A stretch of 64,000 nt of DNA from a virus (IMGVR_UViG_3300031853_000006:1-64000), one strand, 5' to 3'. Numbered from the stretch's first letter, positions 3,331-41,634 are shown. The notes: generated by a model not told the origin, from the sequence alone. A program made the numbers and translations.

Positions 3331-4122
3331 ATGGAAAGCATTTTTTCTAGCAAGCTGTATATGGCAAGCCCTAGAAAAGAGCAAATCAAAGCTGCTCTTG
3401 CATTTACGGGTAACGCCGAGCTCGTGCAGCAACTAGCTTCAAGCCTTGATGAAGAGTATCAGACTCCTCAGAATGTAGGCGAAGCGGAAGCGATCGAAGT
3501 AGAAGACGTCGAAACGGGAGAAGAAGATCTTTTTGTAGACGATGACATCAATCCTGAAACAGATCTAATGACTGTAGACGATCTAACTAACAAGTCTTCT
3601 GGATCAAACAAGTCCGCTAGTAAGCCTTCTAGTAAATCTAGCACACCTATCGGTCCTAAGGGGCCTAAGCCTAAGCGAACTGAATATACAGATGTTCCAG
3701 ACAGTGCGCCATCTGATGATGTCAGTCCAGATGCACCTGAACCAAAGAGCGATAATTCGGAAAAGGACGAAACAGAAGCGTCAACTAAAATAACTTCTTG
3801 TGAGCAGATCAGCTTGACCGTGCTTAAAGAATCACTCAACAGCAGAGAGGATACTAAGGGAGTATCTCGAATAGCAGAAAAAGAAAACGAAGTTTGGATC
3901 TACTACAAAGACGAAGTCAACCTCAATAACCTCATGACGGAAGTCATTGAATACATGATGTCAGCCGGATATGATACACTCGAGTTTAACAGGCTTGCAA
4001 GGTCAGATAACGCAATCGTTTTCCAAAAGACTGAAGGCACTCCTGAAGAACTTGAAAGCATAGAGCCGCAATACACTGATGAGTCAGTCGAGGAAGTAGG
4101 ATTGGAGGGCAAAGCCGAGTGA
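3331..4122 (+). CDS. hypothetical acidic protein with low-complexity linker
   Basis: ATG at 3331 after AAGGAG; TEAS/ITSC sites. Confidence 0.7.
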   Translation: MESIFSSKLYMASPRKEQIKAALAFTGNAELVQQLASSLDEEYQTPQNVGEAEAIEVEDVETGEEDLFVDDDINPETDLMTVDDLTNKSSGSNKSASKPSSKSSTPIGPKGPKPKRTEYTDVPDSAPSDDVSPDAPEPKSDNSEKDETEASTKITSCEQISLTVLKESLNSREDTKGVSRIAEKENEVWIYYKDEVNLNNLMTEVIEYMMSAGYDTLEFNRLARSDNAIVFQKTEGTPEELESIEPQYTDESVEEVGLEGKAE

Positions 4123-4850
4123 AAAGATTAGTGTACTCCACATTAGATGTAGAGGTAGATCCAGGATATATGCTCGATGCAGGAGACAATTCAGTCTTCT
4201 TAAAGAGCCGAAAGCCTAGTTTAACTACTGATATGATTAAAGAAATGATAGGAGCGATGTGCGATAGGCGGGGGTTAGATGCGGCTGACAAGCGTAAGTC
4301 ACAGAGCAACGGAATAAATATCGTTAGAACTAGAGATCAAATTGTAAAGGCGATGCTTAATCACGTTTGCACAGATAGTACCGAATATTATCAGATCGAG
4401 GGTGACGACTTCTGCTATAGAATGTCCTTCGAAGATTTCATGAAGAAATTCACAGTATGTGAACCTAAGTTCGGCTGTAATTATTACAGTCGCTGTATCC
4501 AGTGTGCAGAGGAGCTTGATGAAGAAGCATGGCCCGGATTTACATTCAATTTCGGACGCAAAGAAATCTTTCTCAAGAGCGATAATCAGAATCTTACTAC
4601 TCGAATAATACGAGATTTCATCAATATTGTATGCGACATCAAAGGCGTAGGGGACGCGATCCGAAAGAAAGCGCTTTACGACGAAGCAACACTCAAAGAT
4701 TTCCGTCGTCGTATTATGAAAGGGACGCTCGAGCATCATGTAACTGCTAACGGCACAGAATATTACTCAATTTCAGGGAAGGACTATTCTTGGAGCTACC
4801 CTGCAGATGAGTTCGAAGACAGTGTAATTGTCATGACAGCTCGAGAATAA
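4119..4850 (+). CDS. hypothetical protein (MKRLVYS N-terminus)
   Basis: GTG start overlapping the previous stop, GGAGG RBS. Confidence 0.7.
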   Translation: MKRLVYSTLDVEVDPGYMLDAGDNSVFLKSRKPSLTTDMIKEMIGAMCDRRGLDAADKRKSQSNGINIVRTRDQIVKAMLNHVCTDSTEYYQIEGDDFCYRMSFEDFMKKFTVCEPKFGCNYYSRCIQCAEELDEEAWPGFTFNFGRKEIFLKSDNQNLTTRIIRDFINIVCDIKGVGDAIRKKALYDEATLKDFRRRIMKGTLEHHVTANGTEYYSISGKDYSWSYPADEFEDSVIVMTARE

Positions 4851-4865
4851 TTTTTATAAAAAGTC

Positions 4866-4894
4866 TTGACAAATTCATAGAATTGTCATATAAT
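4866..4894 (+). promoter_or_regulatory. sigma70/sigmaA-type promoter
   Basis: TTGACA-17 nt-TATAAT. Confidence 0.85.
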
Positions 4895-4943
4895 ATAAGT
4901 ACACAACTAATTTGTAGCTTAACAGCTAAGGAGGAATTAAATT

Positions 4944-5141
4944 ATGAAACGAGTAGTTAAAGCAAGTTCAACCGCAGAAGCTGTATACAATGCTGTGGAG
5001 TTTCTTGGAAGTAGAGGAGCAGACGAGCACGACGTGCTCATGCACTTTTTCGATTACCTTCCAGCTGCAGAAAGCCTAGAGGTTCTGGAAGACTACATCA
5101 AGATGTGCGATCTCGATGATGAATGGGCAGCGTACAAGTAA
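4944..5141 (+). CDS. tagged small protein (MKRVVKAS)
   Basis: AAGGAGG RBS; shared N-terminal motif. Confidence 0.75.
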   Translation: MKRVVKASSTAEAVYNAVEFLGSRGADEHDVLMHFFDYLPAAESLEVLEDYIKMCDLDDEWAAYK

Positions 5142-5196
5142 GAAGAGTGGGACACGTATCGCAGATACGCATTCTAATAACAGGAGGAACAGTTCG

Positions 5197-5538
5197 ATGA
5201 AAAGATGGATACACGCATCAGATGAAGTAATGAAACAATCAATCGCAGATGACGAATATTATTCTACTACTCCACGAAACGAAGTAGAATTCGACCACGA
5301 CGTTGTCTGGAGCGTACAATTTTACCCAGCAGGTGCTTTTCTCCTCTATGATAAAGAAGTATTCGTGCTCGGTAAGACTTACAAAGAAGCAAGAGATCAG
5401 GGAGTTGTACTTGCAGAAGCATGGGGCTATCCGACAGACCCGTCACATTGCGTAGTGCAGTATGCTTATGTTTCGATCAATAGATGGTCCAGATTCAACA
5501 AAGACGAATGCGACGGCGTTGAATTCGGCATAGACTGA
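5197..5538 (+). CDS. MKRWIHA-tagged protein
   Basis: ATG at 5197 after AGGAGG. Confidence 0.8.
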   Translation: MKRWIHASDEVMKQSIADDEYYSTTPRNEVEFDHDVVWSVQFYPAGAFLLYDKEVFVLGKTYKEARDQGVVLAEAWGYPTDPSHCVVQYAYVSINRWSRFNKDECDGVEFGID

Positions 5539-5553
5539 GGGAGGAAGTCAATC

Positions 5554-5724
5554 ATGAAAAGATGGATACACGATCCTAACGAACCTCAAGATGAATTTGA
5601 CAGACAGTGGAAAGAGAAGTTTGGAGACGATGATGAAACTATGAAGTTTAATTCATTGGAAGAGCTCCATGATTGGCTTGAGGAAGTTAAGAGATTTGAA
5701 CCTGTTTACGACAAGTCAGTTTAA
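5554..5724 (+). CDS. MKRWIH-tagged 56-aa protein (below the ORF-track cutoff)
   Basis: GGAGG RBS; translated by hand MKRWIHDPNEPQ...YDKSV*. Confidence 0.7.
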   Translation: MKRWIHDPNEPQDEFDRQWKEKFGDDDETMKFNSLEELHDWLEEVKRFEPVYDKSV

Positions 5725-5740
5725 GGAGGAGTATTTAATC

Positions 5741-6067
5741 ATGAAAAGATGGGTACATGCAACTACTGAGTGTGTTTTCGGAATGGCTGTTGTAGATAAA
5801 GATGAATTCGACCTTCCATATGATATATGGCTTGACCCGGCAGGTGCTTCCAGGAATGTTAAACATTCACTGCCTCGAGTAAAGGTAGTTGTGGATGGTC
5901 AGCGAATTCCGTTTTCCATCACAGATGATCCTAAACCGCTTATTAAAAAGCAAATAAAAGGTGAACGGCGCATAAAGGAGTGGATCCTTAAAAATAAAGA
6001 AAATCTATTGAAACAATGGAACCGTGAGTTGACAGATAGTCAGGTTCTTAAAGTTCTAGTAAAGTGA
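5741..6067 (+). CDS. MKRWVHA-tagged protein, DUF4160-like
   Basis: H-x-x-PRVKV...EWI-x-x-N-x-E-x-LL-x-x-W pattern resembling DUF4160. Confidence 0.55.
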   Translation: MKRWVHATTECVFGMAVVDKDEFDLPYDIWLDPAGASRNVKHSLPRVKVVVDGQRIPFSITDDPKPLIKKQIKGERRIKEWILKNKENLLKQWNRELTDSQVLKVLVK

Positions 6068-6089
6068 TAAGTGAGGAGGGGATTAGCTC

Positions 6090-6326
6090 ATGCTAATAGA
6101 TAATGTGCTAGATGTGTTGAATAACTTATGTAACATACTCATCAATGATGGACAGGTTCCCGAAGAAGTAATTGAGATACTCTTGGATTCGGGAGCTAAT
6201 GTAGATATGTTACAGAAGATTGGATTCACTGATGACCAGATTTCTGATTACGCTTATTATGAAGCTAACATGTCCGGAAGGTCAGAAAGTGATATTCTTG
6301 CAGAATTATATAATACGCAAAAGTAG
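6090..6326 (+). CDS. acidic hypothetical protein
   Basis: GAGGAGG RBS. Confidence 0.7.
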   Translation: MLIDNVLDVLNNLCNILINDGQVPEEVIEILLDSGANVDMLQKIGFTDDQISDYAYYEANMSGRSESDILAELYNTQK

Positions 6327-6338
6327 GAGGAACATCAA

Positions 6339-6821
6339 ATGAAAAGATGGATACACGCAAGTAGCAGCACTGCTAACATTCCTAATACAAAAGACGGATG
6401 GATCGATTATTTCCAAAATAACTATTTCAGAGAATATCCAGATTATGATGGACTTGACGATTTAGCAGATTACCTCGACGGAAAAGAAGCAGATACCGAT
6501 TGGTCTTATGCACTTGAAGATTATGGTGCTGATCCAGAAGTCGTAGCTGCACTCGAAAAGTTTGTAGCAAAGAATCAGTCAGCTGCATTTCCAGACAAAA
6601 TACGCATCGCTATGCATCCGGATAGCGCTCTGTTCCCTACTAAAGAGTATGTGTACGACAAAATGTATGTACATGAGGGTGGAGGCTGCTACTATCGCAG
6701 TAAAGACAACCCCGACCCAGTGACTAATGCGTTTGTAAGCTTGTACCCGGATGGTCATCTGACTTATTTGTGGAATGGTACTGAGATGGATTTGGATGCA
6801 AAAGTAACTAACAAATACTAG
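6339..6821 (+). CDS. MKRWIHA-tagged protein
   Basis: AGGAGG RBS; shared motif. Confidence 0.8.
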   Translation: MKRWIHASSSTANIPNTKDGWIDYFQNNYFREYPDYDGLDDLADYLDGKEADTDWSYALEDYGADPEVVAALEKFVAKNQSAAFPDKIRIAMHPDSALFPTKEYVYDKMYVHEGGGCYYRSKDNPDPVTNAFVSLYPDGHLTYLWNGTEMDLDAKVTNKY

Positions 6822-6914
6822 AAAGCTTCAGCAATAGATGCATCCTCCGATCCAGATGAAAAGATCAACAAGGCTCTGTTTAACTGCAGGGCCTCAAAAC
6901 TTTTTAAGAAACAG

Positions 6915-6943
6915 TTGACAAATTCATTGAAATGTCATATAAT
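6915..6943 (+). promoter_or_regulatory. sigma70/sigmaA-type promoter
   Basis: TTGACA-17 nt-TATAAT. Confidence 0.85.
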
Positions 6944-6969
6944 ATACATATAAGGAAGGAGGTAATGGG

Positions 6970-7677
6970 ATGAAACGATTATTAAGAAATCAACCTAGTA
7001 TCGAATTACATCTGTCCGACATCGTCAAAAGCATAGATCACATTGTCATCTGCGAGAATCTGATACAGAGGCCCTATATCATTTCCGCGGATACAGACGT
7101 AGACGAGGACGAACTTACAGATGAACAATTCTACATAACACTAACAGATTCAGAGATTGCCGGTTTGCCCATTGACAAGATACGCTCCTTCACTAACATA
7201 GAACTTTTAGGCAGGATCGCTAAGATCGACTACTCACTCCTCACCGTTGAGCAGAAAGAAGCGATCAAAAAAGCATTCGGCAGAAAAGTAATACTCAGCG
7301 AAAGCGATGTTCAAGAGATACTTAACATGATTAAAGGATGTACTTCTGTTTCGTATGAAGGTCAGCATTGGAAAACAAATAAGTTTCTGAAAGGTGCCGA
7401 CGGAAAGATCCGCAAACAAGATTGCCTTGACATCTTACATCAACTCACTGTTGAAGATTATGTTGCTAACTCTAAGAGTTTCAACTTAGATCATATCGGT
7501 AATCACATAATTATTTTTGAACCGGATAGCGATTGGGAGTTAGCAGACGGCACAATATTAAGCGACATCAAGATCTATGTGAAATTAGACCTAGATGAAA
7601 CTGACGGATCTGCAGCAGCGTTGATCTCAATGCACCAAGCAGCCTATGACGATGATAGATACCCTTATAGGAAGTAA
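6970..7677 (+). CDS. protein with C-terminal MqsR-like (RelE-fold) ribonuclease domain
   Basis: L-x-x-EDY...IF...IYVKL...ISMH pattern characteristic of MqsR-like toxins. Confidence 0.55.
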   Translation: MKRLLRNQPSIELHLSDIVKSIDHIVICENLIQRPYIISADTDVDEDELTDEQFYITLTDSEIAGLPIDKIRSFTNIELLGRIAKIDYSLLTVEQKEAIKKAFGRKVILSESDVQEILNMIKGCTSVSYEGQHWKTNKFLKGADGKIRKQDCLDILHQLTVEDYVANSKSFNLDHIGNHIIIFEPDSDWELADGTILSDIKIYVKLDLDETDGSAAALISMHQAAYDDDRYPYRK

Positions 7678-7733
7678 TTTCAATCTTTTATAAGAATGTG
7701 AACATTTGAATTCAATTCAAGGAGGAACATAGA

Positions 7734-8321
7734 ATGAAAAGATGGATACATGCAGCAACAGATAATCAGCCTGCTGGAGGAGCCCATTGGGAGCGCGGTA
7801 GCGGTGACCTTGCAGCATTTGAATGGTACATTGATAATGAAACAGAAAAGTTGTTAGGTATCATCGAAGAAGCATGGAGAGATGAACTAGGAGGCTACTG
7901 TGCATACGCTTGCTTAGGAGAAAGACGCAGCGACGATAAGTTCCTCGGCAAGTTCGATACACGTAAAGAAGCAGAAAGGTCAATTGTTAACTTCTACGAT
8001 GGCGGAAGCGTCATGAGGGGCAACAAAGGCGATCAGTACGAACTGGTTATGGAAAGTACAGATGCAGATTACTGTGAAGATGCAGTTGATGCATCAACAT
8101 TATCTGCACCAAAAGACAATCTGAAAAAGATAGCTGCTCCCGCAAGTAAGTGGGAGAAGAGTTACGAATCAGAAAGAGGTATCACCTTCTGGTCAAAAGA
8201 TTTTGACAACTGCTCCGCTGATATTTCAGATTATGATGATGACGGATCTGCCGGATACGAAGTAAGGATTGATATCAACGGCGGAGAATGGAACAAGGAA
8301 AACGGCGGAGAAGTACTTTGA
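7734..8321 (+). CDS. MKRWIHA-tagged two-module protein
   Basis: Internal VDAS junction; second module resembles the N-module of 8404..8859. Confidence 0.75.
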   Translation: MKRWIHAATDNQPAGGAHWERGSGDLAAFEWYIDNETEKLLGIIEEAWRDELGGYCAYACLGERRSDDKFLGKFDTRKEAERSIVNFYDGGSVMRGNKGDQYELVMESTDADYCEDAVDASTLSAPKDNLKKIAAPASKWEKSYESERGITFWSKDFDNCSADISDYDDDGSAGYEVRIDINGGEWNKENGGEVL

Positions 8322-8396
8322 GAATTATCGCAACTTCTTGAATAGAATATTCAAAGTTCTCAAAGACAATGGTTTTGAGATTGTAGATTGAGGAGG
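8320..8396 (+). repeat. 77-bp direct repeat of 13806..13882
   Basis: 75/77 identical by eye; a copy of the 3' end and downstream RBS of gene 13572..13877. Confidence 0.9.
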
Positions 8397-8403
8397 TTAT
8401 ATT

Positions 8404-8859
8404 ATGAAAAGATGGATACATGCAGCAACAGGAACAAATGACGGATGGAAGCATTCATATGATTCCGAACGTAGTTGCAGTTTTGATTCTAAAGAATTCG
8501 ATGACGGAGTAGCGAACATTCGTAGTTTTGACAACGACGGAGATTGGGGCTACTCCTTAACACTTGAGTTCGACAATGGCAAAACTATCAGCAAGTCAGA
8601 ATACGGAGAAGGTAGCTTGCAGCGATTGAAGGATTACGCAGAGGATCAGTTTTCGTCTGCAGCAGTACAGAGCCGCACAGAGGTATGTGCAAGCTCTAAA
8701 TCATTCGATGATTGGTATGATTCGTTGAAGTCAGCAGATCAAGCGAAGGTAGATGATTTAGCCGATGATATGGGACTTCCGCTTTACGAAGAGTGTTCGG
8801 AAGCAGAATTAGCCCAGTTACATGATTCTTTCACATCCAACAAAGGAGGACTAAGTTAA
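8404..8859 (+). CDS. MKRWIHA-tagged two-module protein
   Basis: Shared motif; internal VCASS. Confidence 0.8.
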   Translation: MKRWIHAATGTNDGWKHSYDSERSCSFDSKEFDDGVANIRSFDNDGDWGYSLTLEFDNGKTISKSEYGEGSLQRLKDYAEDQFSSAAVQSRTEVCASSKSFDDWYDSLKSADQAKVDDLADDMGLPLYEECSEAELAQLHDSFTSNKGGLS

Positions 8860-9080
8860 TGAAAAAAGTTATTAAAGCATCAGCAGCAAAGGACGACGCG
8901 TACAGGGCAGCCGATACAATCTTGAGCACTATGAAGAAGCTGTTCGACACAATGGATAGTGTGAGCATGGATTATCCTAGCTTCGTAGAAGATAACGGGC
9001 TAGGAGAGCTGTACGATTGCCTTGCAGAGGATATTCCCGCATTTCAGCTAGCTGTTAATAGCAAGACTCTTGAGTATTGA
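8859..9080 (+). CDS. tagged small protein (MKKVIKAS)
   Basis: AGGAGG RBS; motif variant. Confidence 0.75.
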   Translation: MKKVIKASAAKDDAYRAADTILSTMKKLFDTMDSVSMDYPSFVEDNGLGELYDCLAEDIPAFQLAVNSKTLEY

Positions 9081-9096
9081 TCGGAGGTCATTAAAC

Positions 9097-9756
9097 ATGA
9101 AGAAATGGATACATGCGAATAAAATCGTGGATAACGGTCAGATACAGAAGGGCCTCTTATGGTCACTAGATGGACATACACTTGAGGTTGTAAGCGTTAG
9201 TCCTGATCATAAGACTTGCAAAGTATCTGAAAAGTGGATCAATGAAGATACTTTCGAGGAGATGGATGAAGTCGATACGTACAATATAGCAACAGATGCA
9301 AACGGTCAGGAATACATTTACGCTCCCGAATACAAAGAGTACGCTAATCCGGAAAGCCGAGGAGACGACTACAGCTGGTGGGCACGCAAATACGCAACAG
9401 GAGCAAACAATTATCCGTACACGGAAGTTAATGCGTCATCTAATTATGATAATATGGTCAATGAGGACGGGGAGACGTTCCGTCAGTATCTTGACAGGAC
9501 CAGATGGGAAGGATTTGACCCGTCAGGATTATCAGACGATGAATACTATGAGCTCGAAGATGAATTCTATGGAAACGCTATGAAAGCTCCTATGAGCAAG
9601 GAAGAGTTTGATCAGTGGTGGTTCTCTTTGTCATCTATCGATCAGGAAATTGTAGTTGACATCATGGAGGATTGGGACATCTTCAAAGTAACTGAAGATT
9701 ACACAGACAAGATCGTTGAGGAGTTCGGCAAGCGCAAACAACAGAAGGAGTTATAA
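9097..9756 (+). CDS. MKKWIHA-tagged multi-module protein
   Basis: ATG at 9097 after GGAGG; internal VNASS. Confidence 0.8.
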   Translation: MKKWIHANKIVDNGQIQKGLLWSLDGHTLEVVSVSPDHKTCKVSEKWINEDTFEEMDEVDTYNIATDANGQEYIYAPEYKEYANPESRGDDYSWWARKYATGANNYPYTEVNASSNYDNMVNEDGETFRQYLDRTRWEGFDPSGLSDDEYYELEDEFYGNAMKAPMSKEEFDQWWFSLSSIDQEIVVDIMEDWDIFKVTEDYTDKIVEEFGKRKQQKEL

Positions 9757-9759
9757 GAC

Positions 9760-10092
9760 ATGAAGCGATATATTGAAGCAAACCGCAGAACAAGTGAAGC
9801 GAAGCTAATTTATAGTCAGCTTGGGTTCAGATGCCCTGATCTGAGGTCAATGTCGGGAGTTGGGCTCGATCCAAAAGAAGCACTGATGGATGCAATAGAT
9901 AGCATCGACTTTCCTTACTTAAACCTAGATTGGGAAGACCCGGATTCGTTCACATTCGAAGAACTGCTTGAGAAGATTGAGCACTTCAACGAAAACAAAG
10001 ACGGATACGATTACATCTTCTATTTATCTATTGACGGTAAAGTGTATATCGATTTCGTAGAAGAGGCCGTAAAGAAGGGCAACTGTTTTTAA
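9760..10092 (+). CDS. tagged protein (MKRYIEAN)
   Basis: AAGGAG RBS; motif variant. Confidence 0.75.
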   Translation: MKRYIEANRRTSEAKLIYSQLGFRCPDLRSMSGVGLDPKEALMDAIDSIDFPYLNLDWEDPDSFTFEELLEKIEHFNENKDGYDYIFYLSIDGKVYIDFVEEAVKKGNCF

Positions 10093-10226
10093 GTGAATGT
10101 CAGACATGATTCGTCACTACTTAAGGTGAAGCTACTAGCAAATTGCTAGCTGTTTCACCTTTTATAATTTCATCATTTGTTCCTCTATTAGGAGGATAAT
10201 ATACCTAGAAAGGAGAAGAGTAACTA

Positions 10227-11903
10227 ATGGCGAGATTAGTAAAAACGATTGAAGGCCAGCTGGTTAAGTGTAAAGTAGTAACCCACTTTGAAGACAATAC
10301 TGAATCAGTCAAGGTACTTTCAGTTGGCGATGTAGTCGAAGGCCTTAGATACATTGAGAAGGGCGAAGTTAAAACTGCAACAGGTCGTATCTCTGCAATC
10401 AACACAAAGTGCACTTCGGTTACATACGTAGACATGAATCACCCAGAGGATTATTTTGCCAAAGATGTAAAAGCATCTACAATCGAGATAGACGCTTCTG
10501 CACAGTATGAAGCCAAGCTCGTTAGCGTCGAAGCTATGGAAATAGTAGAAGACGCCGGAGTAGAGAACGTAGATAAGGTAACAGTTAGCACTGTACCCGA
10601 AGTAACTCTCGAAATGTCATATACAGACGGCAGGACGGTACTTCAAGATGTAGTAGTAGGTGACATACTTACTGATATGGTGATAATGACATCACCTGGT
10701 CAGCCGGATATCAAAGGTGATTTCAAAGTAGCAGCATTCATGTACAGCATATATCGTAAGGCAGTTAACATCAACGGAATCTATCTGCAGTCCTTACTTG
10801 ATGGCAAGTGCATACGAGCTACCTTCGAGAACATCGTCAGATTTACAGAAAAGCCTGCAGCTCATGTAACACTCAACAATTCATTCGCAGAACTCGCTGA
10901 AGCACTCGAAGAGTCATCTGAAGTGTATGCATTCATGGAGTCAGACGTGACCATTCCACCTCGAGAGGATGGAAGAATCACAACACTTTCAATTCCTGCA
11001 GGAAAGAAACTTGTGCTAGACTTACAAGGGCACAATATTGAAACACTCGCGTATGCATTCTATGTAGCTGGAGGCGATCTTACACTTCGTGATACTTCCG
11101 GAACCGGGCGTATCATTGGTTCAATCCCGAATAAGGCATATCCGATGGTACAAGTAAATGCAGGCGGTGTATTCACCATGGAAGGCGGTACAATTGATAC
11201 TACAGAAGTACCTTTAGCAGAGGGTGATGCAAATTGGCTGTACGGTGTTGTTTGCTCCGGAAATGGAATATTCAACATGACCGGCGGCCAGCTTATTACG
11301 CAAGACGCTGCAGGCATCTCCATAACTAACGGAACCGCATCAGGTGCAGGAGCTAAGTTCAACATCAAGGGTGACGCAGTAATTACTTCAAAAGACTGCA
11401 CAGCAATATATCTTGCAGATAACAAAGAAGTAAACATCAGCGGGCATGCGGTAATCAACGGAGGTATTCTGTTGAGATTAGGTGATCTTAATATCACCGA
11501 AAATGCAACTGTTAATGGTGCACCTGCAGGAACAGATATCTATCCGTTAGGTAAACTTGCATGCGAGTCAGGGTGCGAAAACCATAACGCAGCTATCTTA
11601 GCCATGACCGGATGTTACGGATCTGAGCTCGGCAACGATCTCAACATTAACATAAGTCAGTTTGCCAAAGTAGCCGGATACATTGATAATGCAATTGATA
11701 TTGCAACATTGAATACCAGATATGATCAGAAAGTCAATGTCACAGTCAACTCGCTATACGTTTCTTACACTAACAAGTTGTGGAACATCTATAATCACGC
11801 ACAACTCGCTAGTATGGCTGCTGCAGAGGGCAAGACCTTGCCTGCAGAACAGTCTACAACTGACCTTACAATCAAAGTCAACGGATCTAAGGTATATCCG
11901 TAA
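10227..11903 (+). CDS. putative virion protein with C-terminal beta-helix-like repeats
   Basis: Gly/Asn-rich repeats (GVFTMEGGTI, GIFNMTGGQL, EVNISGHAVI); preceded by an ACCTT motif. Confidence 0.55.
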   Translation: MARLVKTIEGQLVKCKVVTHFEDNTESVKVLSVGDVVEGLRYIEKGEVKTATGRISAINTKCTSVTYVDMNHPEDYFAKDVKASTIEIDASAQYEAKLVSVEAMEIVEDAGVENVDKVTVSTVPEVTLEMSYTDGRTVLQDVVVGDILTDMVIMTSPGQPDIKGDFKVAAFMYSIYRKAVNINGIYLQSLLDGKCIRATFENIVRFTEKPAAHVTLNNSFAELAEALEESSEVYAFMESDVTIPPREDGRITTLSIPAGKKLVLDLQGHNIETLAYAFYVAGGDLTLRDTSGTGRIIGSIPNKAYPMVQVNAGGVFTMEGGTIDTTEVPLAEGDANWLYGVVCSGNGIFNMTGGQLITQDAAGISITNGTASGAGAKFNIKGDAVITSKDCTAIYLADNKEVNISGHAVINGGILLRLGDLNITENATVNGAPAGTDIYPLGKLACESGCENHNAAILAMTGCYGSELGNDLNINISQFAKVAGYIDNAIDIATLNTRYDQKVNVTVNSLYVSYTNKLWNIYNHAQLASMAAAEGKTLPAEQSTTDLTIKVNGSKVYP

Positions 11904-12172
11904 GAAAGGAGCTACGTCATGGATGAGACCATCGAAGTAACTAACGAGGAGTGGAAAGAGCTCCCGACGCCGCCAGAAGATCCTATCGAAGAGGGGATAG
12001 TTGTTCCTGAAGGATCCGATAAGTGACTATTAACATCGTTAAAGATAGTGCAAGGAAGCAGAACTCCTTGCACTGTTCTTTTGTTGAAGCTGATAATGAA
12101 CTAAGCTCCGCAGTGTAGTAACCTTCAATAATACCGGAGTTTCTAAGACGCTTCAAAAGGAGTGCGCTACTT

Positions 12173-12598
12173 ATGAAAAGATTGATTTATGCGACAGAGG
12201 ATAAGCCGTTAGTAGAACGTGTTCAAGAATTCATTGATAAACGCCCACATAAGCTTTCTGTATTCGAAGAAGGTAATCTGTATATTGAGAAACAGTCTAT
12301 CCAAAGTATGATTCATAACTACATTCGATGGTTCAATCAGAATGTCGATGAGTATGGGAATGGTTTTGAAACCGATTGGGATGACGACGATACTATGACC
12401 ATTCGGTATAAGAATGGTGAGATACGAACAATCAATCCGCAGTGGGATGACGGCGACAAGAAGATCAAGACTGACGGAATTGACTCAATCATACTAGACG
12501 GATCCTGGGGCACAGCATGTGCCGGAAACAATCTTGTAGCAGAAGATTACACAGTATACGAAGATATCCCAGATATCCGAATTGATTTTCTAGAATGA
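12173..12598 (+). CDS. tagged protein (MKRLIYAT)
   Basis: AAGGAG RBS; motif variant. Confidence 0.75.
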   Translation: MKRLIYATEDKPLVERVQEFIDKRPHKLSVFEEGNLYIEKQSIQSMIHNYIRWFNQNVDEYGNGFETDWDDDDTMTIRYKNGEIRTINPQWDDGDKKIKTDGIDSIILDGSWGTACAGNNLVAEDYTVYEDIPDIRIDFLE

Positions 12599-12615
12599 TA
12601 GGAGTGAAGTTGGTC

Positions 12616-12933
12616 ATGAAACGCAATACAAATACAGGGAACTTAATTGCGGACGGACGCATACAGAAGGGACTTAAGTGGAAAGTAGGTTGCCACGAAT
12701 TTACAGTCACAGTTGTCGGATTGGGCAGGAAGAGATGTAAAGTAGTAGAAACTTGGCCAGGATGTGAAAACGGAATATTTGGCAGCTACTTATCTACTTA
12801 CTCAATCCATAAAGACGGCAATAAGCGAGAATTTGTACGTGCATACGACGGATTCAAGCTATATGCAACAGACGCAATCAACTATCCTGAATCAACTGCT
12901 AAATTAGATTATTCAGGTACAATATTAAGTTGA
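12616..12933 (+). CDS. paralog of the N-terminal module of 9097..9756
   Basis: IADGRIQKGLKW...CKVVETW vs IVDNGQIQKGLLW...CKVSEKW; YATDAINYP vs YATGANNYP. Confidence 0.7.
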   Translation: MKRNTNTGNLIADGRIQKGLKWKVGCHEFTVTVVGLGRKRCKVVETWPGCENGIFGSYLSTYSIHKDGNKREFVRAYDGFKLYATDAINYPESTAKLDYSGTILS

Positions 12934-12984
12934 AAAGAGAACAAGCATGAAAAGGGCGAAGAATATTAAAGGAGGTAATTTACC

Positions 12985-13554
12985 TTGAAAAGAGTAATCA
13001 GAGCAAACCGATATCAGGAAAAATCAGATAGGCACATGCAGTACATCGCTTTCGTCGGCGAGAAACTTGCACAGATCGCAAGGACGGATTCTGAAGAAGA
13101 ATTGAATCAATTAGCTAGCGATATTGGTTTCAAATTCAGTCACGCAACATCTAAAGAAGATTTGATGGAGCGTGTTCTGGAGGAACTTGAATGGTACATT
13201 AAAGAGTACAAGGAGCAGCGAGCAAAGAGCAACGCGTTACCGAAGGTCAAGGAAGATCTTATCACCTTCATCGACAGTGCTCTCGGATATGATCTTTACA
13301 AAACTAAGGGAGAGTGGTCAAAAGACGCATACAGGATCGAGCATTCAGATGGATCTGAACCTACTCACAAAGAGATGAATGACATCTGCAAAGCCATTAT
13401 CGAGCCTTTTGACGCTAAGTTTGACGAAGGTTTAGGAGGCTCCTGGACAAGCCACAGCGGCCATATTAGGGGAGTTGATTTCAGGATTGGTTTCAATAGA
13501 GATTATGATCTTGACCCGCAGGGCAAGGAATTCTCTTTGCAACTTCAGTTCTAA
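12985..13554 (+). CDS. tagged protein (MKRVIRAN)
   Basis: TTG start after AGGAGG. Confidence 0.75.
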   Translation: MKRVIRANRYQEKSDRHMQYIAFVGEKLAQIARTDSEEELNQLASDIGFKFSHATSKEDLMERVLEELEWYIKEYKEQRAKSNALPKVKEDLITFIDSALGYDLYKTKGEWSKDAYRIEHSDGSEPTHKEMNDICKAIIEPFDAKFDEGLGGSWTSHSGHIRGVDFRIGFNRDYDLDPQGKEFSLQLQF

Positions 13555-13571
13555 TACAGGAGGGTGAATAA

Positions 13572-13877
13572 ATGAAACGGTGGATACATGCAGCAACAAT
13601 TAAACCTGAATTCCAGAAAGGTGATATTGTAATCAAGGGACGTGCTTCTGGATACCAAGGAACATTCGAGATGACAGGAAACATCAATGAATTCCCTGAT
13701 GACTTGTTGGAGTTTGTAAGGAACATCTACTTAATCGACTTCACTGCAGAAGGTGATCCTATCTATAAAGTAGAATACTTGATGGACGAAGACGATTTAT
13801 TCGAAGAGAATTATCGTAACTTCTTGAATAGAATATTCAAAGTTCTCAAAGACAATGGTTTCGAGATTGTAGATTGA
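13572..13877 (+). CDS. MKRWIHA-tagged protein
   Basis: Shared motif. Confidence 0.8.
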   Translation: MKRWIHAATIKPEFQKGDIVIKGRASGYQGTFEMTGNINEFPDDLLEFVRNIYLIDFTAEGDPIYKVEYLMDEDDLFEENYRNFLNRIFKVLKDNGFEIVD

Positions 13878-13891
13878 GGAGGAGCTACACC

Positions 13892-14377
13892 ATGAAAAGA
13901 TGGATACACGCATCGAGCGCTGAGTATGAACATTTGACGGAAACACGTAAACAGCCGAACGGCGAAGATCGTCTCCGTGCTGAATGGTACACTGAGGAAA
14001 GTTATCCAGATGTAGATCCTGAACAGCTTGCAGCCATTCAGGAGATAGATTGGGGAGACGTAACCGCAGAAGATACAGAAAATCTTCTGTACGATCTTGA
14101 TCTTACAAAGATCAAGAGCATCAGATACTGCAACGCTGAGGAAGAGGAAGTAGTGCACGGAGAAGGATTTGAGGACGGATATGTAGTTACTTTCAAAAAC
14201 GGGAAGACCACTATATTCGCTTGGAGAAATTACCCGAATAATCTCGATCCGCTTACAGAACTCCCGGATGCTTTCGGTAACGCAAAGTACCATAGGAGTA
14301 AGAAAGAAAACGGATTTGCACATGCGATGGCAGATTACAACGAACGAATTGCTGACGAAGCTTACGGAAGGGGATAA
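13892..14377 (+). CDS. MKRWIHA-tagged protein
   Basis: ATG at 13892 after GGAGGAG. Confidence 0.8.
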   Translation: MKRWIHASSAEYEHLTETRKQPNGEDRLRAEWYTEESYPDVDPEQLAAIQEIDWGDVTAEDTENLLYDLDLTKIKSIRYCNAEEEEVVHGEGFEDGYVVTFKNGKTTIFAWRNYPNNLDPLTELPDAFGNAKYHRSKKENGFAHAMADYNERIADEAYGRG

Positions 14378-14400
14378 ATCAAATCAATTTAGCAACACAG

Positions 14401-14437
14401 AAAGAGTCACATACCTGATGGGCATGTGACTCTTTTT
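14401..14437 (+). terminator. rho-independent terminator
   Basis: AAAGAGTCACAT/ATGTGACTCTTT stem plus T-run. Confidence 0.75.
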
Positions 14438-14523
14438 AATTACCTAATGAAATCAAACTTGACTGTAAAATCGTTATGTATGATGTACAGACGAAAAACT
14501 CACCGAAAGGAGAATTTTCAATC

Positions 14524-14766
14524 ATGCAAAGCTTTGAATACGACGAGGAGTTACCGGAGGAGATTAAAGATGTAATCAAGCATTACTGGAAAGTATATAA
14601 TAACCTTTCAAAGAAGCTCGATTCTAAAGCGATCAAAGAAATAGAATTCGAAGAAAGGATCCAGAAACAGGCTACTAATACAACAAAGAAAATACTAGAG
14701 ATAGACAGCACATACACACCTCATAACGTATATAACATGATTATCAAAGGAAGGGACTGGGTGTAA
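14524..14766 (+). CDS. hypothetical protein
   Basis: ATG after AAAGGAG. Confidence 0.6.
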   Translation: MQSFEYDEELPEEIKDVIKHYWKVYNNLSKKLDSKAIKEIEFEERIQKQATNTTKKILEIDSTYTPHNVYNMIIKGRDWV

Positions 14767-14772
14767 AGAACA

Positions 14773-15498
14773 ATGTCTAGGAGATTCAAAACATGGCGAG
14801 ACCCATACGGGGAAGGTTTCTACACCTGCAGGCCTAAAGAAATTGAAATCAATGAAGGGCTCACTGTATTTGTAGGATGTAACGGAGCGGGCAAGTCTAC
14901 TCTGATGTCAAACATCGAAAACTGCTTAAAAGCTGACCACATTCCGGTACTTTCCTTTAACAATCTGAAGGACGGGGGAGGCCATGCAATGAGCAAAGCT
15001 GCCTTCGAGTCGGATTTTACACGTGTGAGTACCCTCATGTCATCTAGCGAAGGCGAGTGCTTAGGAATAAACATTGCAAACATGATTAAATACGCACGTG
15101 AGTTCATAATGCACGGAGAGGTCCAGGAGGACACTCGGCTTGAACGCCTAACTCAAGCACTCAATTCAATTATAAACGACGATTCGACTGAACTTAAGGA
15201 CACTAAACCTTCTAATGAGAGGTGGATCTTGCTAGATGCAGCTGATTCTGGTGCATCAATTGATCGAGTAGTTGCATTGAAGGATGTAGTCGGCTTAATG
15301 ATGAAAGACGCTAAGTCCTTCGGTGTAGAGCTATATGTAATCATTACTGCGAACGAATATGAACTTGCAAACGGCACTGATTGCTTCGACGTACACAACG
15401 GTAAATATATTAGATTCCGAGATTACAACGATTTCAGGAAATTCATCCTGCATTCTAGCGAATTAGTGGATAAGCGGTATGCAAGGGTGAACTCTTGA
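14773..15498 (+). CDS. ABC/AAA-type ATPase
   Basis: Walker A GCNGAGKST, SEGE signature, ILLDAADSG Walker B/D-loop. Confidence 0.8.
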   Translation: MSRRFKTWRDPYGEGFYTCRPKEIEINEGLTVFVGCNGAGKSTLMSNIENCLKADHIPVLSFNNLKDGGGHAMSKAAFESDFTRVSTLMSSSEGECLGINIANMIKYAREFIMHGEVQEDTRLERLTQALNSIINDDSTELKDTKPSNERWILLDAADSGASIDRVVALKDVVGLMMKDAKSFGVELYVIITANEYELANGTDCFDVHNGKYIRFRDYNDFRKFILHSSELVDKRYARVNS

Positions 15499-16202: not shown

Positions 16203-16277
16203 CGCCCCTTCGCCAAATGGTTAAGGCACGAGTTTTTGGTACTCGTATTTTTGTGGGTTCGAGTCCCACAGGGGCTG
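16203..16277 (+). tRNA. tRNA-Gln(TTG)
   Basis: GCCCCT/AGGGGC acceptor, anticodon stem CGAGT/ACTCG with loop TTTTGGT, GTGGGTTCGAGTCCCAC T-arm. Confidence 0.88.
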
Positions 16278-19267: not shown

Positions 19268-19552
19268 TTGAAGATCACTAAACATAAGATCTTAGCTGCA
19301 TCTGATTTCAGAACATTCAGTGGGTACGATCTAGATGAGCTCGAAGAGTCATTTCCTGATATCTTCTACGATTACATTTACGACATTCGTCATGATGTAT
19401 CTAGAGTATTTGTATCACATAATCCTAAATGCGAGTTCATCGGAGCGCTTGATTCAGATGGTGGCTATTATGTATACAAGAAGGAAGATCCAGATTTCGG
19501 ACCAGGATGGTTTGAAGTAGATTTCACTGAACTTGCAGAGTACTTAAAGTAA
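19268..19552 (+). CDS. tagged protein (MKITKHKILAAS)
   Basis: TTG start after AGGAGG. Confidence 0.65.
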   Translation: MKITKHKILAASDFRTFSGYDLDELEESFPDIFYDYIYDIRHDVSRVFVSHNPKCEFIGALDSDGGYYVYKKEDPDFGPGWFEVDFTELAEYLK

Positions 19553-21549: not shown

Positions 21550-21885
21550 ATGAAGCGATTTGTGCATGATAAATCTGCAGTTGATATGCTACATGAGTTT
21601 GAATCTAAGCTGACTGATCTTAAGCACTCAGAAGATGAGGACATTGAAAGCGCAACAGTCTTAGATTCAGAAGAATCTCGTTTCGAGCGAATAGCTAAGA
21701 AACAAGTAGAAGATATCGACGGGTTCCTAACAGATTATTGTCTGTACTACGATAAAGCAGATGATATCTATGTCACTGTCTTCGGAGATTCAGATCTTTA
21801 CAGACCTGAAGATGGTTACTTCGATGAAGAGTTTGAAACTCGAGAAGAAGCAATCGAGTGGTTCGACAATTACGGAGAAGAGTGA
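21550..21885 (+). CDS. tagged acidic protein (MKRFVH..., IESAT)
   Basis: AGGAGG RBS. Confidence 0.75.
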   Translation: MKRFVHDKSAVDMLHEFESKLTDLKHSEDEDIESATVLDSEESRFERIAKKQVEDIDGFLTDYCLYYDKADDIYVTVFGDSDLYRPEDGYFDEEFETREEAIEWFDNYGEE

Positions 21886-38135: not shown

Positions 38136-39615
38136 ATTATTTATTAAATATAACGATTCTTACGAATTTTCACTGAATCTATAAGAATCTAGTGAAATAT
38201 ATAACCTTAAATATAATTAGATATCTAAACAAAGAATGAGAAAGGAGGTGAAACATATGAAAACTTGGAAATCTAACCTTAAGCATCTTAGTCTAAAAGA
38301 TTATGAAATCCTTCGTGATATGTGCCATGCAAGCAAGAATGTTTACAATGCTTCGCTTTATAACATTCGGCAACATTTCTTTCAACAAAGCGAATTTCTT
38401 CGATACGAAGCTAATTATCACTTGATGAAAGGTACCAATGTCTACGATTATCTTGGTAATGTTGCCCAGCAATCTATGAAAGCAGCTGACAGTGCATTCA
38501 AAGCTTTCTTTGCTTTGATTAAAATGTATAAGCAAGGCAAGTTGGAGAGTAGGCCTAACATTCCACATTACTTACCTAAAGATGGATTTTTCAAAATCGA
38601 GTTCAACAGCCCTAGGGACCAGAAGAAGAATATCGAGCAAGGCTACTATCAGCTACCAATGTCTCGATACCTTGCAACCAAGTACGAAGGCATCAGGGTC
38701 AAGATAACAATTCCGCCTTACTTGCGTGACAAACATATTCGACAGATCCACATCATTCCTAGATGCAATGGCAAGTACTTCGAAGCCTGTTTCTTGTTTG
38801 ACGATGTCGAAAATCAAAAAGTTAATCTCGATTTAACTAAAGCATTAGCAATTGATTTAGGTGTCAACAATTTTGCAACTTGCGTAACTTCTGAAGGAGA
38901 TTCATTTATAATTGACGGTAAGAAAATCAAATCAATCAACCAATGGTATAACAAAGAAAATGCCAGACTGTCAAGTATTAAGTATAAACAGAAGTTAAGC
39001 AAAGAGGCAACCAACAGGCAAGCACGATTGTCCGCAAAACGAGGACGCCGCATCAATGATTTCATCTATTGTTCTGCAAAGTACATAGTTGAATATTGCA
39101 TCGATCATAACATTGGTAATCTTGTTGTAGGATACAATGACGGCTTTCAGGATAATCCTAATCTAGGTAAAGTCAACAATCAAACCTTTGTGATGCTACC
39201 TTACGGCAAATTCAAAAGCAGGCTCGAACATTTATGCAACTCGGTTGGGATAACCTATACCAAACAAGAAGAATCTTATACCTCAAAAGCAAGTTTCTTT
39301 GACCTAGATGATATGCCAATTTGGAACCCTGATAATCCTCATCAAGGCAGCTTTTCTGGGAAGCGAATCTATCGAGGTCTGTATAGAAGAAACAATGGAA
39401 CTAATCTTAACGCTGATGTAAATGGAGCGCTAAATATCCTAAGAAAATGTAATGTTGTAGACCTTTCGGTCTTATACAGTAGAGGCACTGTCGTCGTGCC
39501 TACAAGAATAAGGCTATCCTGACTTTTTCAGGAGGAAACTCAAACAGCAACCTTCTTGCGAATAGAATTCTATTAAAAATCTTAATGTAACTTGATAATT
39601 TTTAATTTATTCTAA
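38100..39615 (+). mobile_element. solo tnpB element (IS200/IS605-IS607 superfamily), ends approximate
   Basis: tnpB without tnpA, AT-rich flanks, gene fragments on both sides. Confidence 0.6.
38257..39522 (+). CDS. tnpB: RNA-guided endonuclease TnpB
   Basis: AIDLGVNN (RuvC-I), LVVGYNDGF, QEESYTSKAS, NADVNGALNI (RuvC-III). Confidence 0.92.
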   Translation: MKTWKSNLKHLSLKDYEILRDMCHASKNVYNASLYNIRQHFFQQSEFLRYEANYHLMKGTNVYDYLGNVAQQSMKAADSAFKAFFALIKMYKQGKLESRPNIPHYLPKDGFFKIEFNSPRDQKKNIEQGYYQLPMSRYLATKYEGIRVKITIPPYLRDKHIRQIHIIPRCNGKYFEACFLFDDVENQKVNLDLTKALAIDLGVNNFATCVTSEGDSFIIDGKKIKSINQWYNKENARLSSIKYKQKLSKEATNRQARLSAKRGRRINDFIYCSAKYIVEYCIDHNIGNLVVGYNDGFQDNPNLGKVNNQTFVMLPYGKFKSRLEHLCNSVGITYTKQEESYTSKASFFDLDDMPIWNPDNPHQGSFSGKRIYRGLYRRNNGTNLNADVNGALNILRKCNVVDLSVLYSRGTVVVPTRIRLS

Positions 39616-40604: not shown

Positions 40605-40969
40605 CCTTATCATCTCAGGAATTCAGAAACGCATACGAAAAATTCTATAGCTCATTTAGGAATTACCTGTGGCCCTATCGAGTAGTTGAAGATCTCGCTA
40701 ATTTTGAAGTAGAGATCTTTAGTGCGTTCAACGACCTTGATAGCACTCGTAATCTTTTAATGAAGCTGAGTAAGCCCATTGAGGAAGTAGTCAAGGAGTT
40801 TGACGATAAAAAACTCGAAGAAAGATTTAATGCGTTCTTTGAATTACTTGATGAAGTTGAAGCCGATAAGATGTATCTTACATTACCGCAAGTTGAGGAG
40901 GTTACCACTAATGAAAATAAGCAAGACAAATCCGAAGAAGTCAATAAAAGCGAGCTCGCAGCAGACTAA
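40601..40969 (+). CDS. hypothetical protein
   Basis: ATGA overlap with the previous gene. Confidence 0.65.
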   Translation: MTLSSQEFRNAYEKFYSSFRNYLWPYRVVEDLANFEVEIFSAFNDLDSTRNLLMKLSKPIEEVVKEFDDKKLEERFNAFFELLDEVEADKMYLTLPQVEEVTTNENKQDKSEEVNKSELAAD

Positions 40970-41186
40970 GGAAAACATTCAAGCATGTGACGATGCAGAT
41001 GCAATCGTGCTGATCCAGGAGGAAGCAGCTGCAGATCCTACTTGCTGCTGCAAGTACGAAAGATCGCTTGAACTTATCTCGGCAGCTATTGAGTCACTTG
41101 CAGAAATTGCAAAAGACGATCAGATCGCAAAAGATTCAATTGCTAACTTAGGAGTAGTAATGCTCGATCTCAAGAGCAATTGTTAA
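40911..41186 (+). CDS. tagged protein (KKSIKASS, IQAC)
   Basis: ATG at 40911 after GAGGAGG. Confidence 0.65.
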   Translation: MKISKTNPKKSIKASSQQTKENIQACDDADAIVLIQEEAAADPTCCCKYERSLELISAAIESLAEIAKDDQIAKDSIANLGVVMLDLKSNC

Positions 41187-41217
41187 ACTAACAAAAAAAA
41201 ATCGGAGGATTGAACAC

Positions 41218-41634
41218 ATGAAAAGAGTAATCAGAGCATCAGCATACGACAACGCTACTATATTTGAAGACGAGAATTATATATTCAAAAAGGAGCATGG
41301 TATCGGCGTGAACGATACTCCGTATTACGGGTTAGCTGTAAAAGCGAAAAACGGATCGCCAGCAGATAAGCACGTAGTACAAGTCAGACTCAACAGCGAT
41401 TTTCCTAGGTATGAGGGAGCCCCTGTAGGAATTACTTATCAGGGTGCATATGTGGCTCACGGAATGCGAAGCTCAACAGATACGTGGGATGACACACAAG
41501 AATACATCGAAGTACTTCAAGATTCGCTTGATTTCGCAAAGAAAGTAACACAGTGGATCAAACATAACGGCTACGACAAAGTTAATCCGGATGTCGAGCC
41601 TGACTATGATGACGATTACGATCTTGATGAGTAA
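41218..41634 (+). CDS. tagged protein (MKRVIRAS)
   Basis: GGAGG RBS; motif variant. Confidence 0.75.
   Translation: MKRVIRASAYDNATIFEDENYIFKKEHGIGVNDTPYYGLAVKAKNGSPADKHVVQVRLNSDFPRYEGAPVGITYQGAYVAHGMRSSTDTWDDTQEYIEVLQDSLDFAKKVTQWIKHNGYDKVNPDVEPDYDDDYDLDE

Follow-up and report, generated by a model that had tools for sequence, protein, structure and literature searches.

What is the role of a seven-residue sequence shared at the very start of many viral proteins that otherwise have nothing in common? This question is raised by the viral DNA stretch IMGVR_UViG_3300031853_000006:1-64000 (hereafter the window), which makes up the opening 64 kb of a virus contig of 116,896 bases; coordinates designated below as "genome" refer to that contig, a 78%-complete fragment of an uncultured myophage, which carries within the window the genes for terminase (46392-48356), portal (50162-51667) and sheath (54322-56148). 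A first-pass annotation had noticed nine genes starting with MK[RK]W[IV]H[AD] and proposed that this N-terminal tag targets a set of packaged and injected proteins to the capsid and is then cleaved off. After analysis of the contig and its relatives, we favor with moderate confidence the reading that the tag is a propeptide that the head protease cuts behind an Ala, Ser or Gly residue, and that it probably targets its protein to the capsid.

The heptapeptide tag and the genes that carry it

By six-frame scanning of the window, exactly these nine starts (5197, 5554, 5741, 6339, 7734, 8404, 9097, 13572 and 13892) were identified, all on the plus strand, each opening an open reading frame (ORF) of 56-219 aa and each preceded at a distance of 5-10 nt by a Shine-Dalgarno sequence of the GGAGG type. 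The start variants reported earlier at 4944, 8859, 9760, 12173, 12985, 21298 and 41218 were all found, together with three extra tags at 4119, 21550 and 44307 (for details see Table 1). The variants at 19268, 19569 and 40911 do carry a tag-like motif, but it is displaced several residues into the protein and does not begin at residue 1; displaced copies were also detected at genome 73489 and 74295. The two remaining variants, 20434 (MKITAS) and 37758 (MNIEAA), are present but only as weak matches. The rest of the contig adds seven tagged genes, located at genome 73882, 83504, 83909, 84109, 99381 and 100377 plus a polyprotein gene at 74295.

The genome-wide enrichment of the motif, suggested as a check together with the tag itself, was determined using the relaxed pattern M-[KR]-[RK]-[WVYLFI]-[IVL]-x-[ASD] on the 141 plus-strand genes of the whole contig. 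This pattern opens 24 of the 141 genes, or about one gene in six, against 0.02 expected from the residue frequencies, and follows none of the 554 internal Met residues. For the strict WIHA form the chance expectation is 4e-6, and the full motif including the two basic residues was found 19 times at the N-terminus and twice internally (both within the first 25 residues), against 0.6 in shuffled sequences. The tagged proteins are short (median 132 aa), and their bodies are soluble-looking and as acidic as had been claimed, with a median pI of 4.6 against 5.2 for the other proteins (p = 0.004); by BLASTP they are indeed mostly unrelated to each other, a few shared modules excepted. The tag is absent from all the contig proteins of recognizable function, including terminase, portal, sheath, ligase, a helicase-like ORF and homing endonucleases. 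With only two hydrophobic residues after MKR, it also does not resemble a Sec or lipoprotein signal (a basic N-region, a hydrophobic core of 7-15 residues and a small-x-small site).

The synonymous variation pointed out in the first-pass annotation is real and wider than the examples given there: Arg and Lys are encoded by AGA, CGA, CGG, AGG and AAA, Ile/Val/Leu by eight different codons, and Ala by GCA, GCG and GCT. The hydrophobic position alternates between TGG, GTN, TAY, TTY and TTG, and the replacements are conservative (W/V/Y/F/L, I/V/L and A/S). Because the codons vary synonymously and the Shine-Dalgarno sequence is all that is common upstream of the tagged genes (repeat families D1-D4), the selection on the tag acts at the peptide level; a conservation purely at the nucleotide level, named beforehand as a refutation of the tag, is not what we observed, as codon families change while the chemistry is kept. 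The tags nevertheless prefer A-rich codons relative to the genome-wide usage, i.e., AAA in 19 of 24 cases versus 49%, AGA in 13 of 21 versus 33%, ATA in 9 of 18 versus 29%, and GCA in 16 of 19 versus 51%. Starts with MK[RK] are frequent regardless of the rest of the tag (33 of 141 genes), so that translation efficiency may be a further reason for the first three tag residues. What is peculiar to the tag is hydrophobic-[IV]-x-small-[S/A/T].

A search of IMG/VR with the final gene of the contig identified 22 related loci, several of which are located on complete records with terminal repeats, and four relatives were taken whole: G1 (134.5 kb), G8 (137.7 kb), G3 (144.2 kb) and G2 (166.0 kb). The proteins that they share with the contig are about 40-70% identical. 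Starts of the form M-K-R-[V/Y/I]-[I/V]-x-[A/S/C] are carried by 14 genes in G1, 5 in G8, 6 in G3 and 5 in G2, and a run of about 15 neighboring genes in G1 starts with MKR when looser variants are counted. The consensus in the relatives is MKRVIKAS, and at their GC content of 33-43% the same peptide is written with different codons; MKRWIHA itself occurs on homologues of gene 6339 in other contigs. As judged from these genomes, the tag is a clade-wide property of which WIHA is one flavor. At the DNA level the exact WIHA tag was not found in IMG/VR, and the degenerate pattern for MKRVIKA[S/T] retrieved 10 stretches from the same collection, six in G1 and G9 and the others near the chance number.

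The family of the genome 100377 gene gives a closer view of the tag. Nearly all of its 30 aligned homologues start with MKRY[VI][KR], as a rule continued by [A/G/S]S (residue 7 is A in 15, G in 7, S in 3, C in 1 and E in 2), while three diverge. In the AlphaFold model (mean pLDDT 90.5) only residues 1-8 fall below 50 and the rest stays at 93 or higher, and therefore the tag is predicted, for this one modeled family, to be a flexible extension outside the fold; the model had no fold match in PDB. A faster turnover of the tagged genes was not seen between the contig and G1, since 5 of 24 tagged and 15 of 91 untagged small genes are conserved. The closest isolate is Bacillus phage vB_BceM-HSE3, the capsid protein of which is 25% and the large terminase 32% identical, and a megablast search with window positions 4000-15000 gave no match in the collection of isolated phages. 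The clade is abundant, more than 850 related capsid proteins having been found in gut and rumen metagenomes; because one capsid homologue bears the label Agathobacter, Lachnospiraceae are likely hosts. The tag is common to this clade, which comprises uncultured myophages with genomes of 120-165 kb and T4-type heads, from Bacillota of the gut or rumen.

Head proteins of the relatives and module joints

For the contig itself, family searches detected neither PF05065 (HK97-type capsid) nor Peptidase_S77 or Peptidase_S78, the Gp23 family not having been included in that search. In the relatives the head module is located about 11-12 kb past the homologue of the final contig gene; this phage's own head module has therefore been lost off the contig end, and the match between the tag and head-protein sites consequently rests on the relatives. 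Within this limit, the proposed link between tag and head protease is supported indirectly, through the relatives, by a motif at the capsid propeptide boundary, at the protease domain end, on a small gene upstream of the protease and at polyprotein junctions.

The protease of the relatives matches Peptidase_S77 (T4 gp21) above the Pfam cut-off in G2 and G3, within ORFs of 480-488 aa, and homologues are present in G1 and G8; over the relatives the ORF length is 470-494 aa. The N-terminal 150 residues or so represent the protease domain, while the remainder matches coiled coils only and so has the appearance of a scaffold joined to it. Where the protease domain ends (residues 152-155 in G1), the sequence [IV]-A-A-S is conserved, with A-A-S invariant. 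The next gene encodes the capsid protein, of which the Pfam Gp23 match (E = 4e-17) starts at residue 76. Of 120 capsid homologues from metagenomes, 118 have [V/I]-[T/M/N]-[A/G/S] immediately before an invariant ATNT[S/A]N (around residue 68), with R or K at P7, and ATNT[S/A]N is the predicted N-terminus of the mature capsid protein; T4 gp23 is cut at Glu65↓Ala66 (the arrow marks a cut here and a putative cut in the sequences below). The basic capsid propeptide harbors further [IV]-x-[AS] sites, 2.4 being observed against 0.8 in shuffles. A small acidic gene located two upstream of the protease starts with MRKVIKPSSRKVTAST (MRKVIKPS) in G1 and with MKRVIKAD in G3; from the T4 gene order 67-68-21-22-23, it presumably occupies the position of gp67, a core protein.

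In the tags, the capsid site and the protease site alike, the putative P1 is Ala, Ser or Gly, and the T4 rule L/I-x-E is not followed. The likeness of the tag to a [VI]-x-A↓S protease site, noted in the first-pass annotation, holds as a sequence pattern: the tag fits the assemblin-type [V/L/I]-x-A↓S, a fit at the level of sequence that claims no membership. Proteases of the ClpP or Prp type were found neither in the contig nor in the four relatives. In vB_BceM-HSE3 a large ORF (559 aa) lies just 5' of the capsid gene, at the position of the protease-scaffold gene, and its capsid protein lacks a basic, motif-rich propeptide. Neither the single capsid sequence nor a 28-sequence profile matched T4 gp23 in PDB, the AlphaFold model of the G1 capsid protein is poor (pLDDT 47), and the complex prediction for the G1 protease domain (1-150) with a G1 tagged protein scored 0.00, which gives no verdict and was not used as evidence.

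As a separate observation, the C-terminus of the protease-scaffold protein (G1 114682-116058 and homologues), I-S-A-G-T-S-T-A-N-I-A-P, resembles the predicted mature N-terminus of the capsid protein, A-T-N-T-S-N-I-M-A-R-P. This C-terminus may represent another site of processing or may reflect mimicry between capsid and scaffold.

The same motif marks joints inside multi-module proteins. The polyprotein encoded at genome 74295 (678 aa, acidic) contains 10 [IV]-x-[AS]-[AST] sites against 2.4 expected, a number reached in none of 2000 shuffles. Within gene 7734, KKIAA↓PAS is located at residue 131 (nt 8124), at a module boundary, and the next module has its homologue in gene 8404, directly after the tag. 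The first module of gene 9097 is 50% identical to a 97-aa G1 protein starting with MKRVIKAS, and EVNA↓SS is found at residue 110 (nt 9424), where this one-module homologue ends. Among the homologues of gene 6339, one carries a complete internal MKRWVHAA between two modules, and three carry MKRWIHA directly on the second module, with TVKA↓ST or KVIKA↓DS at the next joint. Since tags and joints share the motif, N-terminal tags and internal joints would therefore interconvert through gene fusion and fission.

The first-pass annotation had also suggested the tag DNA as a recombination handle, for which we found good agreement in a block of about 95% identity that ends in the tag and in homologues with modules swapped behind the tag. 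The block at 8320-8420 begins with what is left of the 3' end of a gene of the 13572 type, continues through the Shine-Dalgarno sequence and includes 17 nt from the start of the tag; the identity ends inside the tag, and the gene bodies beyond are unrelated. This one clear junction supports the candidate handle. As the tag DNA is nearly the sole sequence common to the tagged genes, it may also serve as a site of crossover by which new modules are brought in behind the tag.

Expression signals and the weighing of alternatives

Three classes of putative promoter motif were recognized (for positions see Table 1). Motif a represents at least 13 near-identical, perfect sigma-70-type promoters, AAAAAGTCTTGACAAATTCATAnAAnTATCATATAATATA, in which conservation extends far outside the -35 and -10 hexamers. 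Copies of this early-type promoter stand ahead of the main tagged cluster, where they had gone unnoticed in the earlier reading, and others precede the ligase operon, a homing endonuclease gene and further non-structural genes; motif a is probably an early promoter class read by host sigma-A. Motif b, AAATCGTTAA, is located 30-100 nt 5' of many genes, often large non-structural ones such as homing-endonuclease-like ORFs, with 25 copies in G1, 29 in G2, 11 in G3 and 9 in G8; it probably marks a third (middle?) promoter class. Motif c, AACCTTnnAT[AT], is present in 14 copies against about 3.6 expected by our own estimate from base composition. All but one of the 14 are on the coding strand, and 11 of these 13 lie 30-63 nt 5' of a start codon. 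It precedes the portal gene, the gene before the sheath (neck module), the packaging module and gene 22709, which lies upstream of the tail-fiber genes; it also precedes the head module in G1 and G8 and, in G8, the portal gene. Motif c is hence read as a candidate late promoter.

This candidate late motif stands ahead of the tagged genes 12173-14377 and 40911-41634 and of those at genome 73489-76331 and 83504-84450. Judged by their promoters, the tagged genes divide about evenly into late-looking and early-looking ones. A literature search gave nothing citable on the expression timing of the genes for T4 internal proteins.

According to the favored reading, the tag, with the seven residues M-K-[R/K]-hydrophobic-[I/V]-x-[A/S/G] and S/A/T next to them, would be a propeptide recognized and removed by a prohead protease of the gp21 type. 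By binding to the protease-scaffold core, the tag would bring the small, mostly acidic accessory proteins into the prohead, and after activation of the protease the tag would be cut behind its small residue. The same rule would apply to the propeptide of the capsid protein, to the boundary between protease and scaffold and to the joints within modular polyproteins; finally, the cargo would exit the head together with the DNA. Cleavage, capsid loading and ejection are steps that we infer from a coherent chain of many independent sequences, in which the tag would equal the junction motif and the junction motif would equal that at the capsid and protease boundaries, with the gp21-type enzyme as the sole recognizable protease.

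A number of observations weigh against this proposal. Eleven tagged genes (4944-10092) follow two sigma-70-type promoters that match the consensus perfectly and whose class is otherwise found ahead of non-structural genes, and early synthesis would be compatible with later packaging but unlike a pure cargo model. No tagged protein has a recognizable function, and Pfam gave nothing usable for 20 tagged or neighboring proteins (a methyltransferase domain was identified by Pfam in a G2 polyprotein). Neither a capsid protein nor a head protease was detected on the contig after PHROGs and Pfam scans of its large ORFs, and the nearest isolate to the clade is only 25-32% identical. The proteases of phiKZ and SPN3US reportedly cut after Glu (S/A/G-x-E) and not after Ala, Ser or Gly. 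The cargo is acidic here, in contrast to the basic internal proteins of T4. The core [IV]-x-[A/S/G]-[A/S/T] is common, at 0.47 per 100 aa of background, and is over-represented even in the mature part of the capsid protein (8.6 versus 3.8 in shuffles), so that single matches carry little weight. T4 gp21 itself cuts a glutamyl-alanyl bond (PMC9026906). It is because the core is short, degenerate and frequent in the background, and because the known proteases cut after Glu, that we give the propeptide reading a confidence only modestly in its favor.

The half-early promoter pattern keeps alive a role in early protein function, by which the tag would be an N-terminal signal with a capsid-unrelated fate, sorting or timing early host-takeover proteins, and its likeness to the head sites would be coincidental. 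We consider this unlikely. Such a signal might be a degradation signal for a host AAA+ protease, a host-peptidase site or a docking peptide for a phage or host factor, and on about 15% of the genes of a phage it would itself be new. It agrees with the largest tagged cluster standing behind two consensus sigma-70-type promoters typical of early genes, with proteins that are small, acidic and of no recognized function, as are host-takeover and anti-defense proteins, and with the strictly N-terminal location of the full motif; the short core is also frequent enough for chance matches in head proteins. It does not, however, account for the motif at a capsid boundary conserved in 118 of 120 homologues and at the protease domain end, nor for its presence at the joints of polyproteins and at the start of the small gene that lies upstream of the protease, and several tagged genes lie behind the candidate late motif, as do the portal, neck and head modules. 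The missing secretion-type hydrophobic core and the failure to find a ClpP-type or Prp-type protease in the contig and the four relatives also speak against it.

Descent of all tagged genes from a single ancestral family, with bodies diverged past recognition and the N-terminus kept for structure or folding, is improbable. Several tagged genes are demonstrable paralogues or share modules, and the WIHA genes are clustered with near-identical codons, suggesting recent duplication; but the bodies vary between 56 and 219 aa with no BLASTP similarity for most pairs, homologous modules occur tagged, untagged and behind differing flavors, an internal tag copy divides the modules of one homologue, and the tag is predicted to be disordered and outside the fold in the one modeled family. 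Still less probable is conservation at the nucleotide level, i.e., an A-rich initiation enhancer, the site of a translational regulator overlapping the initiation codon or a tract of gene conversion, the peptide itself playing no part: the over-use of A-rich codons, the MK[RK] starts on 33 of 141 genes without the rest of the tag and the one recombination block ending within the tag would fit, but positions 4-7 switch codon family with the chemistry kept (TGG/GTA/TAC/TTC/TTG, ATA/ATT/ATC/GTN/TTA and GCN/TCN), the relatives at 33-43% GC keep the peptide with other codons, and tag-like motifs recur in-frame within proteins, far from starts.

Returning to the propeptide reading, we put forward tentatively, as possible rather than probable, a wider picture in which a T4-type head protease has shifted to a herpesvirus-like Ala/Ser/Gly rule, the 7-residue MKR-hydrophobic-I/V-x-A tag loads more than 20 different acidic effectors (about 15% of the genes), and the tag DNA is a crossover handle by which modules are captured, fused and swapped between phages. 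If true, it would show how far the head-loading device of T4 scales and would extend that device by a new cutting code as well as by a very short tag; it would also offer a natural peptide signal that doubles as a recombination handle. The whole cargo set would be readable from the genome sequence, giving candidates for first-wave anti-defense and host-takeover proteins of Bacillota phages, and the tag would be a minimal one for protein delivery into gut Firmicutes.

Other features of the contig were recorded in parallel. The last gene of the second early-type tagged operon (10227-11903) encodes an untagged 558-aa protein without family match, the middle and C-terminal region of which is Gly/Asn/Thr-rich and gives the impression of being beta-helix-like. 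Two tandem genes of about 700 aa (56313-58568 and 58570-60582) are HNH/homing-endonuclease-like, the second also with a weak Mom-like match; similar genes (starting with MKFKPKACKECGK...) recur in the relatives behind the AATCGTTA motif. Between terminase and portal, the C-terminal 300 residues of a 535-aa ORF (48534-50141) weakly match the C-terminal part of an NAD-dependent DNA ligase (phrog_3869, E = 4e-10), and a full-length NAD ligase is encoded at genome 68429-70549. A TnpB-like gene (38257-39522) carries OrfB_IS605 and Cas12f1-like TNB domains. The window also includes the genes for tRNA-Leu (anticodon TAG, 1032-1113) and tRNA-Gln (anticodon TTG, 16203-16277).

Table 1. Tagged genes, putative expression signals and repeats (window coordinates unless marked genome)
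Feature	Position	Strand	Remark
Tag-like gene, GTG start, MKRLVYST, 243 aa	4119..4850	+	ORF list; fits M-K-R-hydrophobic-V-x-S-T
Sigma-70-type promoter, 12/12 consensus (TTGACA-17-TATAAT), ahead of tagged genes 4944-6821	4866..4894	+	Repeat family D5, at least 13 near-identical members
Tagged gene MKRVVKAS, 65 aa, pI 4.4	4944..5141	+	
Tagged gene MKRWIHAS, 113 aa	5197..5538	+	
Tagged gene MKRWIHD, 56 aa	5554..5724	+	Asp replacing Ala
Tagged gene MKRWVHAT, 108 aa, pI 9.6	5741..6067	+	Sole basic protein of its cluster
Tagged gene MKRWIHAS, 160 aa	6339..6821	+	Two modules
Second sigma-70-type promoter, 12/12 consensus	6915..6943	+	Ahead of 6970-11903, including tagged 7734-10092
Tagged gene MKRWIHAA, 195 aa	7734..8321	+	
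Repeat block, about 100 nt, about 95% identical to 13806-13908	8320..8420	+	D6: 77 nt at 97%
Tagged gene MKRWIHAA, 151 aa	8404..8859	+	
Tagged gene MKKVIKAS, 73 aa	8859..9080	+	
Tagged gene MKKWIHAN, 219 aa	9097..9756	+	
Tagged gene MKRYIEAN, 110 aa	9760..10092	+	
Terminator-like hairpin, 13-bp stem	12044..12077	+	End of second early-type operon
Candidate late promoter AACCTTCAATA	12120..12130	+	53 nt 5' of tagged gene 12173
Tagged gene MKRLIYAT, 141 aa	12173..12598	+	
Untagged paralogue of gene 9097 module 1, starts MKRNTNTG	12616..12933	+	
Tagged gene, TTG start, MKRVIRAN, 189 aa	12985..13554	+	
Tagged gene MKRWIHAA, 101 aa	13572..13877	+	3' end within repeated block
Tagged gene MKRWIHAS, 161 aa	13892..14377	+	
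Displaced variant MKITKHKILAAS (KHKILAAS), TTG start, 94 aa	19268..19552	+	
Acidic protein, 286 aa	19569..20429	+	RVSAS at residues 5-9, RRRRVIKAS at residues 14-22
Tagged gene MKRYLKAA, 77 aa	21298..21531	+	Homologues in G1, G2, G8
Tagged gene MKRFVHD, 111 aa, pI 4.2	21550..21885	+	
Displaced variant MKISKTNPKKSIKASS, 91 aa	40911..41186	+	KKSIKAS at residues 9-15
Tagged gene MKRVIRAS, 138 aa	41218..41634	+	3' of candidate late promoter 40048
Loosely tagged gene MKKFVKSE, 206 aa	44307..44927	+	First of packaging module, behind late-type motif 44251
Motif a (probable early promoter)	4866, 6915, 16532, 56229, 62323; genome 67811, 81913, 89218, 95093, 99174, 100833, 103361, 104170		
Motif b AAATCGTTAA (probable third class)	342, 3284, 14469, 15518, 21985, 44203, 61528 and others		
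Motif c (candidate late promoter)	12120, 22678, 40048, 44251, 50130, 53921; genome 73426, 80824, 83450, 98412		

Comparison with known systems

In the jumbo phages phiKZ and SPN3US, ejection and inner-body proteins are made with propeptides that are processed by gp175 and gp245 (PMC5694885, PMC7411985, PMC10052503). The likeness lies in the many head-internal proteins trimmed by a gp21-type protease at a short consensus, some into several fragments, while the propeptides of those phages are long and varied instead of a uniform 7-residue tag, and the cargo is unrelated. The fold class of gp21 is related to that of herpesvirus assemblin (PMC9026906), with which the tag shares an aliphatic P3, Ala as P1 and either Ser or Ala as P1', a resemblance in cut-site pattern only; the assemblin sites are located within the protease-scaffold precursor and do not form cargo tags.

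The closest comparison is with T4, in which IPI, IPII and IPIII (internal proteins) as well as Alt have propeptides of 7-19 residues at the N-terminus, by which they are directed to the core and which gp21 cleaves off, the internal proteins of T-even phages being highly diverse save for this targeting sequence (PMC9026906, PMC3012670). Packaging and cleavage are known for T4 and are predicted here from the sequence. The present system differs in a basic start of the tag (MKR), a predicted cut after Ala, Ser or Gly instead of Glu (L/I-x-E), at least 24 tagged genes (about 15% of the contig) instead of a handful, a protease that is fused in the relatives to a coiled-coil, scaffold-like domain, and mixed promoter classes, with many tagged genes behind early-type promoters. 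The two systems agree in having short N-terminal propeptides (7 residues for Alt and 10-19 for the internal proteins of T4) on unrelated, fast-evolving accessory proteins, which end in the cutting motif of the head protease in T4 and in a putative one here; in the gp23-family capsid protein and gp21-family protease of the relatives; and in the organization of variable gene clusters, in which the tag is nearly the sole conserved sequence.

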